A stretch of DNA of 64,000 nucleotides from a virus (lineage: Duplodnaviria > Heunggongvirae > Uroviricota > Caudoviricetes): IMG/VR virus record IMGVR_UViG_3300037483_001818; one strand, given 5' to 3'. The translations under genes were made by a program, and so were the position numbers. Positions 16,395 through 55,069 of this stretch are shown here, in pieces. The notes under the pieces are model-generated. The model ran no database searches and was not told where the DNA came from. It worked only from the letters and a program-made list of their open reading frames with translations. Every line of letters starts with the position of its first letter. Within the stretch, counting starts at the first letter, position 1.

Positions 16395-16898
16395 GTGAAC
16401 ATGTCTCGCGGTGAGGTCAGCGAGGTCATCCCTGGCCTCTACATCGGAAGCAAGCCTCCGCCGGGCAAGCACGAAGGCATTGACGCGATCGTTCTTGCAG
16501 CGATGGAGTACCAGCCGCCTGCGCATCTGTTTCCGGCGACCGAGGTGATTCACGCACCGCTCGACGACGCGCCGGGGCGACACATGCGCGAAGACGAGAT
16601 CGTGACCGCGATCAAGGCCGCCAAGCGCGTTGCTTGGCTACTGCGCGCCGGTCGTCGCGTGCTCAGTACCTGCCAGATGGGCCTTAACCGATCGTCCCTA
16701 GTCGCTGCGCTCGCAATGCACGATGTCTATGGCGGCATGAGTGCGGATGAGATCGTGACGCGTGTGCGGCGAGCTCGTGGCAGGTGGGCGCTGTCGAATC
16801 CGAATTTCGAGAAGCTTTTGCGCGTCGTGGTTGGCTACGGCCAGAATTCTTCGTTGCATGGGATGTCCGATCCTGCGCCGACGGTGCGTCCCGCCTGA
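16395..16898 (+). CDS. dual-specificity (Cys-based) protein/RNA phosphatase-like
   Basis: CX5R active-site loop STCQMGLNRSS matches the DSP/PTP signature. Confidence 0.6.
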   Translation: MNMSRGEVSEVIPGLYIGSKPPPGKHEGIDAIVLAAMEYQPPAHLFPATEVIHAPLDDAPGRHMREDEIVTAIKAAKRVAWLLRAGRRVLSTCQMGLNRSSLVAALAMHDVYGGMSADEIVTRVRRARGRWALSNPNFEKLLRVVVGYGQNSSLHGMSDPAPTVRPA

Positions 16899-16901
16899 CC
16901 C

Positions 16902-17363
16902 ATGCGCATTCAGATTGCCCAGGGCGCGCCAGCTCTGATTTCACAGCGTCGCGAGGCGTTGTTGCACGATGCGTCGCTGCCGCTGACGGTGCGTGGATCT
17001 GCAAACGTGCACTTCGAGAAGCCGTGGATACCGAACTTCTGGACGGTCGCGATCCGTGCGCCCAAGCCTGGCAGCGAGAGCTTCTTCGACTTCCCGGTCG
17101 GTTACGCCGACGATGGCACGCCATGGTTCTTTCCGTCACGAGAGTGGTGGGTAGCGCACGCCAAGGCGAGTCATCCGCCCGACGGCATGGGTTGCGATGT
17201 CGACGTTCATACGAAGTTCCTCTCGAGCGAAGGATCTGTGCACGAGTTCGATTACGCGACGGTTCTCACCGATGGAACGATGCAGATCCTTGGGCGTGCG
17301 GACTTTGTCGATGAGTGCGCGTGGTGGTCGCACGCGTTTGGCGCGCGCGGAGGACAGCCGTGA
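16902..17363 (+). CDS. hypothetical protein
   Basis: ATG directly after upstream stop. Confidence 0.45.
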   Translation: MRIQIAQGAPALISQRREALLHDASLPLTVRGSANVHFEKPWIPNFWTVAIRAPKPGSESFFDFPVGYADDGTPWFFPSREWWVAHAKASHPPDGMGCDVDVHTKFLSSEGSVHEFDYATVLTDGTMQILGRADFVDECAWWSHAFGARGGQP

Positions 17364-17395
17364 AGATCAGCGCTCTATTGTTGAGGTGTCGTCGA

Positions 17396-17710
17396 TCACG
17401 CGTCCTCATTCTGGGAGGCGCGCGACGCTGCTGGTGCGGCGTCGGGCAATACTTCGAGGATTTCGGCGTCGCAGTAGCAACTGCCGCCTGCTGAGCAGGG
17501 CATGCCCAGCAGCGTGTAGCGCTTCGTGGTGTCGAGATCTGTGATGACGCCGTAGATGCCGGGACCTCGTCCATCGGCTAGTTCATGGTCCGCCGCGCTT
17601 ACTCGAAGTGCGACACGCTCGCCATGAAACATGGGTGTGAGGGTGGGACCTTCAAGCGGGATCTCGTAGTGCGTCTTGTCGGCGGACAGCGGCCACGGTT
17701 CCTTGATCAT
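17396..17710 (-). CDS. hypothetical protein
   Basis: ORF track; GAGG upstream. Confidence 0.45.
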   Translation of the reverse strand: MIKEPWPLSADKTHYEIPLEGPTLTPMFHGERVALRVSAADHELADGRGPGIYGVITDLDTTKRYTLLGMPCSAGGSCYCDAEILEVLPDAAPAASRASQNEDA

Positions 17711-17817
17711 CGTGGAGACCTCAGGGCTCTCGCGCTACTGGTGCGTTCACCTACCGATCGCTTCATGATGGCGGTGTTTTGAAGGCTCGCCTGCATCTTA
17801 AAGACGATACCGTGAAC

Positions 17818-18243
17818 TCACTCTTCCGCGGGCGGTTTCGGGATCCGATGCTCGACGGGTGTGATGTCGTCATCAGACAAGACAGTCGTGTCCTCAGAAG
17901 GTTTGACGACGTCGCGTGTGCTTGTCCGCGGGATCTCCGCGAGTGGTACACGAACCAGCGGTGTCATCTCGCCGGTCGGGATCCGTGGAGGCGTAACGTC
18001 GTCTTCATCGAGAAACGGAGCCATCACCAGATGAAGCACCCGCTGTGGATGATCGGGGACGTCGATGAGAACGAACAGGTCTCGTCCGGCTCCCTGACGG
18101 AGTCCTGGCAAGCGTCCGAGGCGGCGCATATCGTCTACCTCTTCCCAGATCTCGACGAGCTCCTCGTGGGCGAGCACCGTCTCGGCGGTTGCCAGGAACT
18201 TCCCGGTCTGACGGAAGTAGAGGAGCTGGACCCTGTACGGCAC
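17818..18243 (-). CDS. hypothetical acidic protein
   Basis: protein-like composition; preferred over the overlapping plus ORF 17779-18258. Confidence 0.45.
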   Translation of the reverse strand: MPYRVQLLYFRQTGKFLATAETVLAHEELVEIWEEVDDMRRLGRLPGLRQGAGRDLFVLIDVPDHPQRVLHLVMAPFLDEDDVTPPRIPTGEMTPLVRVPLAEIPRTSTRDVVKPSEDTTVLSDDDITPVEHRIPKPPAEE

Positions 18244-18622
18244 TGCCGAGGACGGTAGCTCGGCGTGATCTTGAGCGCGAATCTTCGGCAGTCATGACCG
18301 CACCTTCGCCCTGCGCTCATCGCGTTGGTTGACAGCCGCGTGTACATCGCGCTAGCCTTCTTCTTGTAGAGAAGCTCATGTCGATCGCAACCGCATCCAC
18401 GAGAGTCACAAGGCGCCAAGGCGTCATGGGACACGTGTGCGCGCGTCGCGATTGGGCCCACTCGGCGAATTTTGCCGGCAAAGGGACCGTCGAGGGTATC
18501 AAGCGCCAGCCGCAGCCCACGACCTATGAAGGGAAGGCTCCAGACTCGTAGACCAGGCTAGAACAGCCGAAACGATCTGGAGCCGCCCTGGGAACAAAAC
18601 CCTCGGCGGTTTTCTCGTTTTC

Positions 18623-18707
18623 GGGCGCGCAGACCGGCGTGGCTCCGGGCGTGGTTGTAACCCACGCATGCTTCTGCATCGTCTCGGTTCGATTCCGAGC
18701 GCGCCCA
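18623..18707 (+). tRNA. tRNA-Tyr (GTA), long variable arm
   Basis: acceptor GGGCGCG/CGCGCCC, T-arm CTCGGTTCGATTCCGAG, anticodon loop TTGTAAC. Confidence 0.6.
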
Positions 18708-18763
18708 CGAAGGAATGTGATGACGAAGAAGAAGCTCAAACGCACGGCCTCAAGTCCGCTCAC

Positions 18764-18843
18764 GGGCTCGTGGCAGAAAGGTTATGCACCCGACTTTTAA
18801 TCGGAGCCGCGAGGCAATGGGGGTTCGACTCCCTCCGGGCCCA
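18764..18843 (+). tRNA. tRNA-Lys (TTT), extended variable region
   Basis: acceptor GGGCTCG/CGGGCCC, T-arm GGGGGTTCGACTCCCTC, loop CTTTTAA. Confidence 0.5.
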
Positions 18844-53482: not shown

Positions 53483-53555
53483 ACTGTCCCGGCCTGGAAT
53501 CCATGAGTTAGGAATCTGTACGGATGTTATCGGGAGTGACGATAAACTCTCTATA

Positions 53556-53590
53556 AATGGGTGGAGGCGAGGGGAGTCGAACCCCTGTCC
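53556..53590 (-). ncRNA. partial tRNA 3' half (T-arm plus acceptor 3' strand), possible integration/rearrangement scar
   Basis: reverse complement reads CAGGGGTTCGACTCCCCTCGCCTCCACCC with no matching 5' half. Confidence 0.3.
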
Positions 53591-54033
53591 GAAGATGCAT
53601 CCGAACGAACTTCTACGCGTGTAGGGCGCTGTTTGTGGTCTCGAACTCGACGGTAGCGACCGACCTGCGAGTTCAACGAGCTGACGAATCTCGATCTCCG
53701 TGTGTCAGCGCTTCAGGAGATCCAGCCTGATTGTGGCGGTGCTTCGTGGCTACAGACGGAAGCTACGAGCACCGTCGTCGAGCCTGGTGTTCAGGCTGCG
53801 GCGAGAGCAACAGCGCCGTTGTTGTCGTTCGCAGTTGCAGGTTTGCCCATTTTTACGTGGCCTTGGGCGCCACGACGCGCGATCCGAACTTTCTCATCCT
53901 CGTCGAAACCGGTACGCCCCCCATGTCTAAAGAAGGATCCACTATGAAGGCGGTGCGGCGATCTCGTCAAGACGTGGCCACGCGATCGAAGTGGTTGACG
54001 ACCGTGCGGCTGTCGAGTAGCTTTGTTTTTCTT

Positions 54034-54107
54034 CGCGGGGTGGAGCAGGCTGGTAGCTCGTCGGGCTCATAACCCGGAGGTCGCAGGTTCAAATCCTGTC
54101 CCCGCAA
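54034..54107 (+). tRNA. initiator tRNA-fMet (CAT); CCA encoded
   Basis: near-identical to canonical bacterial initiator: C1 opposite A72, three G:C pairs closing anticodon loop (GGGCTCATAACCC), ends CAACCA. Confidence 0.75.
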
Positions 54108-54192
54108 CCAAGTGTTTTTTCGATGACGTCGTTCCTCTCATCACGCTCGTCTAGTCGCAGTCGCTCGTAGCGACTCCTAGACGTTGTGTGTT

Positions 54193-54281
54193 GGCAGGGA
54201 AGGTCAGTCAGGTGACGACGGCGCTCTCGAAAAGCGTTTGCCCCTAAAAAACGGGGTCGGGTTCGAGTCCTAGTCCTGCCA
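54193..54281 (+). tRNA. tRNA-Ser (CGA), type II
   Basis: acceptor GGCAGGG/TCCTGCC, anticodon arm GCGCTCTCGAAAAGCGT, variable-arm hairpin CCCC-TAAAAAAC-GGGG. Confidence 0.55.
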
Positions 54282-54286
54282 CGAAT

Positions 54287-54371
54287 GGAAGGCGAGTCCG
54301 TGCGGGTGCTGGAAGTCGTTTGCTAAACGACGTGCCGTGAAAGCGGCCGGGTTCGAGTCCCCCGTCTTCCG
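54287..54371 (+). tRNA. tRNA-Ser (GCT), type II
   Basis: acceptor GGAAGGC/GTCTTCC with G73, anticodon arm GTCGTTTGCTAAACGAC, variable-arm hairpin GCCG-TGAAAG-CGGC. Confidence 0.55.
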
Positions 54372-54384
54372 CGGAGGCAACATC

Positions 54385-55069
54385 GTGAATGCATCATCAT
54401 CTGATTCTGTCGTCGTCGAGGTCCGCGCGGCCGAGGGTGGCGCAGACGCCAAGCTCCTCGTGCTTGAGCAAGTGAAGATCTACCTGCGTCTCTGCACGCG
54501 GAGGTCTCTTTAGCGTCGAGATAGTAGAAGATCGGCCCGGCATCGCTGTGCTCTGCGTCGCGGGTCGCGGCGCCGCGGCACTGTTCGCGGGGGAGTGCGG
54601 TGGTCACCGATGGCAGCGCGTGCCTGAGACCGAGAAGCGTGGACGTGTGCACACGAGCACGATCACCGTTGCGGTGCTTGAGGAGCCACGGCACGTCGAG
54701 CTGACGATCCGCCCCGAGGACGTCGACATCGAGACGATGCGTGGCTCCGGTGCCGGCGGCCAGCACCGGAACAAAACGGACTCGGCCGTGCGCGCACGTC
54801 ACCGGCCGACCGGGATCGAGGTCCGCTGCGAGTCCGAGCGATCTCAGCATTTGAACCGCGAGCTCGCGCTGCGGGTCCTCGCCGCGCGCGTCGCGGAGCG
54901 GGCGCGATCGGCGGCGCAGGGAGAGCGCGATGCCGATCGTCGTCGGCAGCTCGGGTCTGGCATGCGCGGCGATAAGCGGCGAACAATTCGAACGCAGGAC
55001 GACCAGGTGAACGATCACGTCGACGGCCGGACGTGGCGATACAAGTCGTACGCGCGTGGTGACTGGTAG
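54385..55069 (+). CDS. prfH: PrfH-like truncated class-I release factor (GGQ) that needs a +1 frameshift at CTT TAG (54508-54513)
   Basis: frame-1 segment (54385-54513) [29 protein letters not shown] aligns to RF2 domain 2; frame-2 continuation carries [16 protein letters not shown] and the RF C-terminal [14 protein letters not shown] block. Confidence 0.55.
54499..54514 (+). promoter_or_regulatory. candidate programmed +1 frameshift site: GGAGG-tct-CTT-TAG-C
   Basis: SD-like GGAGG, 3-nt spacer, slippery CTT T, in-frame stop; mirrors the prfB site AGGGGG-uau-CUU-UGA-C. Confidence 0.5.

Follow-up and report, generated by a model that had tools for sequence, protein, structure and literature searches.

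How is a complete release factor (RF) produced from a gene whose reading frame changes after 42 codons, and does that gene belong to a coherent apparatus for the support of translation? Both questions are raised by a 64,000-nt stretch of IMG/VR virus record IMGVR_UViG_3300037483_001818 (hereafter the window), in which the region between 16 and 55 kb holds the RF gene together with about 43 tRNA genes, a transfer-messenger RNA (tmRNA) and genes for an RtcB RNA ligase, a peptidyl-tRNA hydrolase and a protein resembling Ro60. A preliminary description had read this region as a phage-borne kit that keeps translation running under attack by tRNA- and rRNA-cleaving host defences, combining the logic of Rsr–Y RNA–RtcB operons with that of RtcB2–PrfH pairs. 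We consider it likely that the window is a piece of a huge (~330 kb) tailed-phage genome, that its 16–55 kb interval is a translation-support region composed of separate modules, and that its release factor is made via a +1 ribosomal frameshift.

The RF interval (54385-55069, + strand) had been described as one gene for a PrfH-like factor. RF1 homology does extend throughout and is unbroken across the junction, but the interval of 685 nt is not a multiple of three and spans two reading frames, a frameshift that had gone unremarked. The zero-frame open reading frame (ORF; 54385-54513) runs for 42 codons from GTG at 54385, ends in CTT TAG with the stop at 54511-54513, and encodes the start of RF domain 2, its homology beginning at about residue 83 of T. 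maritima RF1 and 111 of E. coli RF1. The +1 frame (54512-55069) supplies the rest of domain 2, including the stop-codon-reading PxT motif (QRVPETE), followed by domain 3 with its GAGGQ catalytic motif and domain 4. Assignment to the release factors stands (Pfam RF-1, E 1.9e-29; PCRF, E 8e-10), whereas assignment to PrfH does not: the joined product scored 210 bits against NCBIfam prfA, 130 against prfB and 105 against prfH, the last being half the prfA score and under the TIGR03072 cutoff of 166.65, and among PDB chains RF1 gave 143-170 bits, RF2 92-107 and PrfH 55-66. The prfA score is itself under the equivalog cutoffs of 400 and 423 bits, with model positions 1 to ~100 missing, and the 227-aa protein aligned to E. 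coli RF1 residues 111-322, from which we conclude that domain 1 is absent. On these comparisons the factor is of RF1 type without domain 1, not PrfH, with UAA and UAG as the stop codons that it should recognise.

The junction reads CGG AGG TCT CTT TAG C and contains a +1 frameshift cassette, GGAGG-TCT-CTT-TAG-C (54500-54514, + strand), that matches the prfB motif of PMC12421855: a Shine–Dalgarno (SD)-like GGAGG at 54500-54504, the spacer TCT, CTT TAG at 54508-54513 and a weak +4 C at 54514. As the sequence reads, full-length factor is obtainable solely through a +1 shift of the ribosome at CUU-UAG. Related loci (given L-numbers here) were gathered from IMG/VR, metagenomes, GenBank phages and metagenome-assembled genomes (MAGs), and 28 of them, comprising 22 distinct sequences with 49-85% protein identity, carry a +1 shift at one shared codon, where CTT is in every case followed by a stop. 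Across the 22 distinct sites the stop is TGA in 17 and TAG in 5, an exact GGAGG occurs in 16, always with a 3-nt spacer, C follows the stop in 17, and CTTT is invariant while neighbouring codons vary. A profile-based scan of IMG/VR found RF relatives on 322 contigs; when the best 80 of these were classified by frame, 59 had a +1 shift, all at CTT plus a stop (TGA 44, TAG 12, TAA 3), six were uninterrupted, four had an in-frame stop and eleven were left unclassified by the script. Among the carriers is LR745208.1 (L038), a published huge-phage genome of 485 kb that is without annotation. The P(E/P)T motif is kept in most RF relatives examined. The frameshifted gene of L038 (~5900-6550) has lost the PxT loop and has HRVQRTSNGRIHSS in its place, so that the reading of stop codons may have been given up in part of the family, as in PrfH.

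Other states of the same codon offer hints about the history of the site. Uninterrupted relatives carry Phe-Asp or Phe-Lys at the shift position, so that a single-base insertion in a purine-rich '...RRG-F-D...' stretch, already SD-like, could have created it. In the distant, low-GC relatives L003-L005, L030, L031 and L036 the frameshift codon is occupied by an in-frame TGA (8082-8130 in L003), and normal-length tRNA(UCA) genes sit 1.7-2 kb downstream of the RF gene in two of them (10307-10378 in L003; 12638-12710 in L036). These loci have the appearance of a suppressor-dependent form of the switch, or of TGA recoding; for them an ORF-coverage test of recoding was not decisive, and the adjacent tRNA(UCA) genes are more telling. 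Recoding of stop codons in the window was tried as a candidate and rejected, as ORFs of at least 150 aa cover 88% of it under the standard code.

The closest counterpart is the +1 frameshift of prfB, the gene for RF2, with which the window gene shares an SD-like element, a 3-nt spacer, CUUU, an in-frame stop, usually a following C, a shift on tRNA-Leu and the fact that the product is a release factor. In contrast to prfB, the window gene is of RF1 type without domain 1, and its site lies at codon 42/43 in domain 2, aligned to the Trp of RF1 '...RKGW...', whereas in prfB it lies in domain 1, at about codon 26. TAG is the stop in the window and in about a fifth of its relatives, whereas a 2025 survey of 12,753 bacterial genomes reported prfA to be free of programmed frameshifts and TAG to be absent from 8,164 prfB motifs (PMC12421855). 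Where the stop is UGA, the encoded PxT factor should not read its own shift-site stop. No frameshift in a phage release factor was described in the open-access papers that we searched; we did not find the conserved +1 frameshift in an RF1-type phage factor described, and this is the part that we report as new.

By analogy with prfB, the +1 shift would be favoured when termination at this stop is slow, and the yield of full-length factor would thereby rise. The window pairs a UAG stop with a PxT factor that would read it, which makes self-regulation plausible in the form of an RF1-type autoregulatory loop. In relatives with UGA, expression of the factor would be coupled to host RF2 activity; there the switch would report host RF2, or the codon specificity of the factor would depart from expectation. 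Among the relatives compared, the tripeptide motif showed no clear correlation with the shift-site stop codon. We give even weight for and against to the proposal that a widespread huge-phage family of RF1-type factors without domain 1 independently evolved a prfB-like +1 switch, placed in domain 2 and sensing the termination capacity of the cell.

A second family of interest is represented by the protein encoded at 23869-25788 (+ strand), previously called Rsr on the strength of TROVE and von Willebrand factor A (vWA) domains. Sequence searches gave solely weak vWA matches; in the PDB, RO60 structure 9nen was matched at E 6e-4 over the vWA part only, and 9kop and 9l5y at E 0.12. A full-length structural model (pLDDT 81) found TROVE/Ro60 structures as its top Foldseek matches, with low TM scores, and residues 1-410 modelled alone from a more diverse alignment reached pLDDT 90 and pTM 0.84. 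These models place a helical TROVE-fold domain at about residues 1-410, with an extra beta-sheet insert at ~24-93, ahead of a C-terminal vWA domain that bears the DxSxS motif of a metal-ion-dependent adhesion site (MIDAS). By its predicted structure the protein is Ro60/Rsr in fold and architecture while being undetectable as a member of the TROVE sequence family; since the fold is seen by structure alone, the Rsr call was right for fold and architecture, vWA/MIDAS included, and not for sequence family. The family is large (1,907 matches, many on contigs of 260-460 kb).

Directly 3' of the Ro-like gene lies a conserved gene for a 312-aa partner (25796-26734, + strand), which has a copy of 86% identity on the 359-kb contig L037 and one of 53% identity in the GenBank phage Rctr197k, in each case directly downstream of the Ro-like gene. 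The partner has no family or PDB match; its middle is charged and coiled-coil-like, and in the Rctr197k record it is without CDS annotation. On the other side, a small ORF divergent from the Ro-like gene (23534-23713, - strand) has a weak match to NikA-like ribbon-helix-helix proteins and is a possible local regulator. It fills the spacer 5' of the Ro-like gene, where a Y RNA might be expected; the corresponding spacer in Rctr197k is of 84 nt only. A divergent, tRNA-like Y RNA is possible, and one possibility is that the Ro60-fold protein and its partner use an adjacent tRNA-like RNA in this role.

ORFs were present at all eight of the coordinates put forward in the preliminary description, and its calls of RtcB, PTH2, a calcineurin-like phosphoesterase and an HD-type alarmone-hydrolase-like gene hold on the basis of sequence. 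The RtcB gene (48331-49893, - strand), whose family joins 3'-phosphate or 2',3'-cyclic-phosphate to 5'-OH ends, matched PF01139 with 317 bits (E 2.8e-94; model positions 12-426) and phrog_1075 (E 6e-62), and shows the motifs GNDVCCGM, GGGNHF, HSGS and HRKGA, in keeping with metal-binding Cys/His residues and the guanylylated His of the family. The PTH2-type peptidyl-tRNA hydrolase (47117-47455, - strand) scored 34.5 bits against PF01981 (gathering cutoff 23), of which only the C-terminal half aligned, and matched NCBIfam Pth2 at E 2.9e-6, under the equivalog cutoff; a PDB sequence search gave no direct match. The metallophosphoesterase (33166-33726, + strand), YfcE-like, exceeded the cutoffs of Metallophos_2 (30.5 vs 27 bits) and Metallophos, matched phrog_547 (E 2.8e-54) and contains DxH, GD and GNHD motifs. 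The small HD hydrolase of RelA/SpoT (Mesh1/SAH-like) type (41721-42326, - strand) matched PF13328 HD_4 (41.1 vs 27.2 bits; E 1.9e-10) and positions 1-148, the hydrolase part, of TIGR00691 (E 3.9e-12), with HD and ED motifs.

Two further calls survive in part. The gene at 16395-16898 (+ strand), described as a CX5R dual-specificity phosphatase, matched phrog_10650 (E 3.8e-10) and has C93-x5-R99 intact, but its Pfam DSPc score of 25.8 bits is under the cutoff of 33.5. The AlkB-like 2OG-Fe(II) dioxygenase (27046-27747, + strand), syntenic in L037, is supported by PF13532 (2OG-FeII_Oxy_2, 67.9 vs 31.2 bits; E 1.8e-18), phrog_21963 (E 8e-53), HxD (H104-D106) and later His residues, but fails the AlkB equivalog TIGR00568 (16.5 vs 231 bits). 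Nearby are an HNH endonuclease gene within the tRNA region (21327-21863, + strand; HNH_5, E 1e-16), kept in L037, a second HNH gene (27752-28336, + strand; Pfam HNH, E 2.5e-10) and a gene for a protein with a ThiF/E1-like adenylyltransferase domain (29068-29646, + strand; PF00899, E 2.6e-19), syntenic in L037 and Rctr197k, whose ThiF/MoeB/TcdA-type matches are generic and all under cutoffs. The interval also holds SPFH, cyclase, YgjP-like and SprT-like peptidase and AAA+ ATPase genes and many unknowns.

ARAGORN predicted 42 tRNA-like genes and one tmRNA, and Rfam, at gathering score, 33 tRNAs and the tmRNA. Two candidates missed by these finders, a tRNA-Ser(GCU) (54287-54372, + strand) and a degenerate, probable tRNA-Trp(CCA) (~20382-20453, + strand) aligned to the tRNA-Trp of L037 (4577-4648), would extend the set to 20 of 20 amino acids. 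More than the five clusters previously counted were found: array A (18623-20194, + strand) with 14 tRNA genes, in the same order in L037; array B (20533-21250, + strand) with 7; array C (21889-22333, + strand) with 4, including a weak tRNA-His(AUG); array D (22955-23513, + strand) with 7; a tRNA-Arg(ACG) (29993-30067, + strand); tRNA-Leu(UAA) and tRNA-Leu(GAG) (32982-33146, + strand), of which the GAG tRNA reads CUU through wobble; tRNA-Leu(UAG) and tRNA-Leu(CAA) (33754-34040, + strand); three tRNA-like genes (46705-47003, - strand), namely Ile(AAU), Met(CAU) and one with an 8-nt anticodon loop; and tRNA-Met(CAU), tRNA-Ser(CGA) and the missed tRNA-Ser(GCU) (54034-54372, + strand) directly 5' of the RF gene. 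The last of these has a long arm and lies directly upstream of the RF start. The tmRNA (53559-53921, - strand; RF00023, 173.6 bits) encodes the tag peptide ANDNNGAVALAAA.

Several further RNA features were noticed in the region. An imperfect hairpin of ~70 nt with a U-rich tail (20196-20267, + strand; minimum free energy -40.1 kcal/mol, z -3.65) lies between tRNA-Arg(ACG) and the tRNA-Trp position; its counterpart in L037 (4490-4560; z -3.85) differs from it by changes on both sides of stems, and the hairpin may serve in RNA processing or in termination, or may be a structured RNA of another kind. The tRNA-like gene at 46930-47003 (- strand; Rfam tRNA, 54.3 bits) has the 8-nt anticodon loop UU-UAUA-AA, reported by ARAGORN as a four-base anticodon 'tata', and a similarly irregular tRNA ('gatg') is present in the corresponding neighbourhood of L008. 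As a frameshift partner the UAUA tRNA was rejected, pairing with CUUU being impossible. Adenosine at anticodon position 34 (A34) outside tRNA-Arg(ACG) is unusual in bacterial-type tRNA sets; here it occurs in Ile(AAU) (46705-46778, - strand) and the weak His(AUG) (22265-22333, + strand), and in relatives in Phe(AAA) (L008, 3609-3683) and Leu(AAG) (L028, 1701-1786).

How closely do these genes belong together? They occupy both strands and are interrupted by HNH, ThiF-like, SPFH, cyclase, YgjP/SprT-like and unknown ORFs, so that the co-localisation claimed for them amounts to location in one region, not to an operon. One putative module leads from the tRNA arrays to the Ro60-fold protein and its 312-aa partner, then the AlkB-like, HNH and ThiF-like genes; a second would comprise PTH2, tRNA-Met and tRNA-Ser and the release factor, with the SpoT-type HD hydrolase, the metallophosphoesterase and the Cys-phosphatase dispersed across the region. 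L037 keeps the order of the tRNA array, Ro-like, partner, AlkB-like, HNH and ThiF-like genes, Rctr197k repeats the order tRNA array, Ro-like gene, partner and ThiF-like gene, and PTH2 (43-90% identical) adjoins the RF gene in L007-L010, L013 and L040. Synteny thus favours these two groupings, but RtcB shares in neither: in L037 ~8.7 kb separate it from the Ro-like gene, and in L008, which has an RF of 83% identity, the 10 kb around the RF gene do not contain it. In the window, RtcB, about eight small unknown ORFs and the tmRNA form a 6.6-kb block (~47.5-54.0 kb) between PTH2 and tRNA-Met that is missing at the matching place in L008 (8973-10001). Since the position of RtcB shifts among relatives, we take this block to be an insertion/deletion difference, and homing endonucleases appear to shape the tRNA/Ro-like block. 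Judged by the activities of their families, the phage tRNAs would substitute for depleted or cleaved host tRNAs, RtcB would reseal tRNA or rRNA cut by metal-independent ribonucleases, PTH2, tmRNA and release factor would liberate stalled ribosomes and peptidyl-tRNA, and the Ro60-like ring would deal with damaged or misfolded RNA.

The identity of the surrounding element is supported indirectly, through relatives in IMG/VR, in huge-phage genomes and in Rctr197k. G+C content is ~62% across the whole window. A megablast search with 23-43 kb against 50,697 phage records gave no match, and relatives were therefore sought through proteins. The Ro-like protein is 100% identical to P0001, present on contigs of up to 328,796 bp, and its relatives occur on contigs of 260-461 kb and on IMG/VR viral contigs. 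The nearest GenBank record, the tailed phage Rctr197k, encodes a major capsid protein and a terminase related to those of PaBG-like jumbo phages. The left flank of the region carries replication and transcription genes, all on the + strand, for the C-terminal part of a VapE-like primase/helicase (347-1177), a sigma-70 region 4 protein (4560-5396) and a DnaB/KaiC-like ATPase (12928-13929). On the right, a 659-aa AAA+ ATPase of Cdc48/proteasomal-ATPase type with a winged-helix N-terminal part (56806-58785, - strand) has the anti-phage ATPase IteA as its best NCBIfam match, far under the cutoff.

Several observations weigh against the picture of a phage region devoted to translation, with a regulated release factor. 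No capsid, terminase or other virion gene lies inside the 64-kb window. Many genes of the interval (SPFH, cyclase, YgjP/SprT-like, ThiF-like, HNH) have no evident link to translation, and DNA or nucleotide signals are just as possible as targets of the AlkB-like protein, the phosphatases and the HD hydrolase. A scan of ten ORFs, seven of which flank the tmRNA and the RF gene, revealed no SmpB. The Ro-like protein was unmatched by the TROVE family in Pfam, NCBIfam, PHROGs and PDB sequence searches, as were ten remote relatives and two family profiles, and Rfam detected no Y RNA, neither at gathering score window-wide nor at E ≤1 over 16-56 kb. As regards the frameshift, the SD-like element is missing from 3 of the 22 distinct sites, and most relatives combine UGA at the shift site with a PxT-type motif, so that strict autoregulation cannot be the general rule.

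Four other explanations have to be set against this picture. A single-nucleotide break in one metagenomic contig would normally be read as a pseudogene or as a sequencing or assembly error, and gene callers duly split the gene; yet an identical +1 break recurs at this codon, each time with CTT plus a stop, in 28 independent assemblies and in 59 of the 80 best IMG/VR contigs while the flanks diverge, and both halves retain RF1 homology and catalytic motifs. This conservation excludes decay or error for practical purposes, and we find either hardly credible. Distinctly improbable, too, is the earlier view that RtcB and the factor form an RtcB2–PrfH-like pair rescuing and repairing ribosomes with cleaved 16S rRNA, with the Ro-like protein and RtcB following the logic of rsr–Y RNA–rtcBA. 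The window does share with the PrfH (RFH)/RtcB2 pair a class-I-type factor without the N-terminal domain in a region with an RtcB ligase (PMC6514570), at a distance of 4.5 kb, but the two genes are encoded on different strands and separated by the tmRNA and about eight ORFs, L008 has no RtcB beside its RF gene, the prfH and PDB scores favour RF1, the PxT-type motif is kept in most relatives examined, and RtcB scored 141.5 bits where the release_rtcB cutoff is 271.8. With Salmonella rsr-yrlBA-rtcBA and the Deinococcus Rsr/Y RNA/PNPase complex the window has in common a Ro60-fold vWA ring protein, RtcB and many tRNA-like RNAs in the genome, and the distance of ~8.7 kb between RtcB and the Ro-like gene in L037 speaks for such a link; in the window, however, the two genes are 22 kb apart on opposite strands, without a detected Y RNA and without RtcR or RtcA, and the Ro-like protein has its extra beta-sheet insert and its 312-aa partner. 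The changing place of RtcB among relatives, with its block present in some and missing in others, argues against the pair and the operon alike.

The remaining two explanations question the unity of the region and the nature of the element. The tRNA arrays could be a hotspot for homing endonucleases and unrelated accessory genes that came together incidentally, with no functional kit; AlkB would then repair DNA or reset methyl marks, and nucleotide signals would be removed by the phosphatases and the HD hydrolase. The scatter over both strands among two HNH genes and other genes without a translation link, the movement of RtcB, an extra LAGLIDADG gene in the same block of L037 (14736-15674) and the DNA methyl-mark role favoured for jumbo-phage AlkB in PMC7824862 are all consistent with such a hotspot. 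Even so, the Ro-like gene and its partner directly follow the tRNA arrays in relatives down to 57% protein identity, PTH2–RF adjacency is kept in distant relatives, RF genes lie within tRNA arrays in L002 and L017 too, and the translation-related share of the region is far above what random accessory genes would lead one to expect; we therefore regard incidental co-location as unlikely, while granting it some weight. A megaplasmid or chromosomal island, in place of a phage, would account for a 64-kb window without a virion gene, and passages of Al-Shayeb et al. (PMC7162821) describe similar translation suites on plasmid-like large elements; four relatives were also binned in bacterial MAGs. 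Those bins, however, span four unrelated phyla, which points to mis-binning, relatives occur in IMG/VR and in the huge-phage genome LR745208.1, and Rctr197k, with its capsid protein and terminase, has the same gene layout. A non-phage element is, on this evidence, very improbable, and a modular translation-support region of a huge phage remains the reading that we prefer.

Set among known systems, much of the gene content has precedents. Section 3.4.9 of Iyer et al. (2021; PMC7824862) describes jumbo phages in which tRNAs occur together with RtcB or Rnl ligases, ROT/TROVE proteins, PTH2 and phosphoesterases as a counter to host assaults on the translation machinery, and passages of Al-Shayeb et al. 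(2020; PMC7162821) describe huge phages encoding RF1, RF2, tmRNA and SmpB. The window resembles these suites in its tRNAs, RtcB, TROVE protein, PTH2, phosphoesterases, release factor and tmRNA. The notion of a translation kit directed against nucleases, put forward in the preliminary description as an unusual combination, is thus a reasonable reading but not a new one, and the combination is not unusual in kind. In contrast to those suites, the TROVE protein of the window is beyond the reach of the Pfam model and has a conserved partner, and its release factor, devoid of domain 1, depends on a frameshift; neither a divergent TROVE protein with such a partner nor a frameshifted release factor was found in the passages of the two papers drawn on here. 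The Ro60 of Thermus phage phiLo (PDB 9L5Y; PMC12135203) is ~19% identical to the window protein over the aligned part, and the latter is ~140 residues longer and unrecognised by sequence profiles. TGA-recoded Jade phages carry a 'code-change module' of RF1, suppressor tRNA and TrpRS (Borges et al., 10.1101/2021.08.26.457843) and thus, like the window, a phage RF1-type factor; the distant relatives L003 and L036, with an in-frame TGA at the same codon and a nearby tRNA(UCA), share a Jade-like trait, whereas the window has the standard code, no suppressor tRNA and a frameshift in place of read-through.

The gene kit is therefore best seen as a further example of a published theme, in which huge phages bring their own parts for the repair and rescue of translation, to which the window adds a Ro60-fold family that is invisible to sequence profiles, with 1,907 detected relatives and a conserved partner. 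The point of wider interest is the frameshift in the release factor: the prfB signal recurs at another codon, in TGA and TAG variants, on hundreds of viral contigs, and annotation should allow for it, as such RF genes are mis-called as two ORFs or as pseudogenes. Those relatives in which the UGA is in frame and a tRNA(UCA) gene lies nearby would represent a read-through form of the switch, and the family as a whole is a natural experiment on how a recoding signal originates and what that signal senses. It also provides a directly testable case of possible autoregulation in this type of factor, in which the UAG variants would be the first known autoregulatory loop of an RF1-type release factor.

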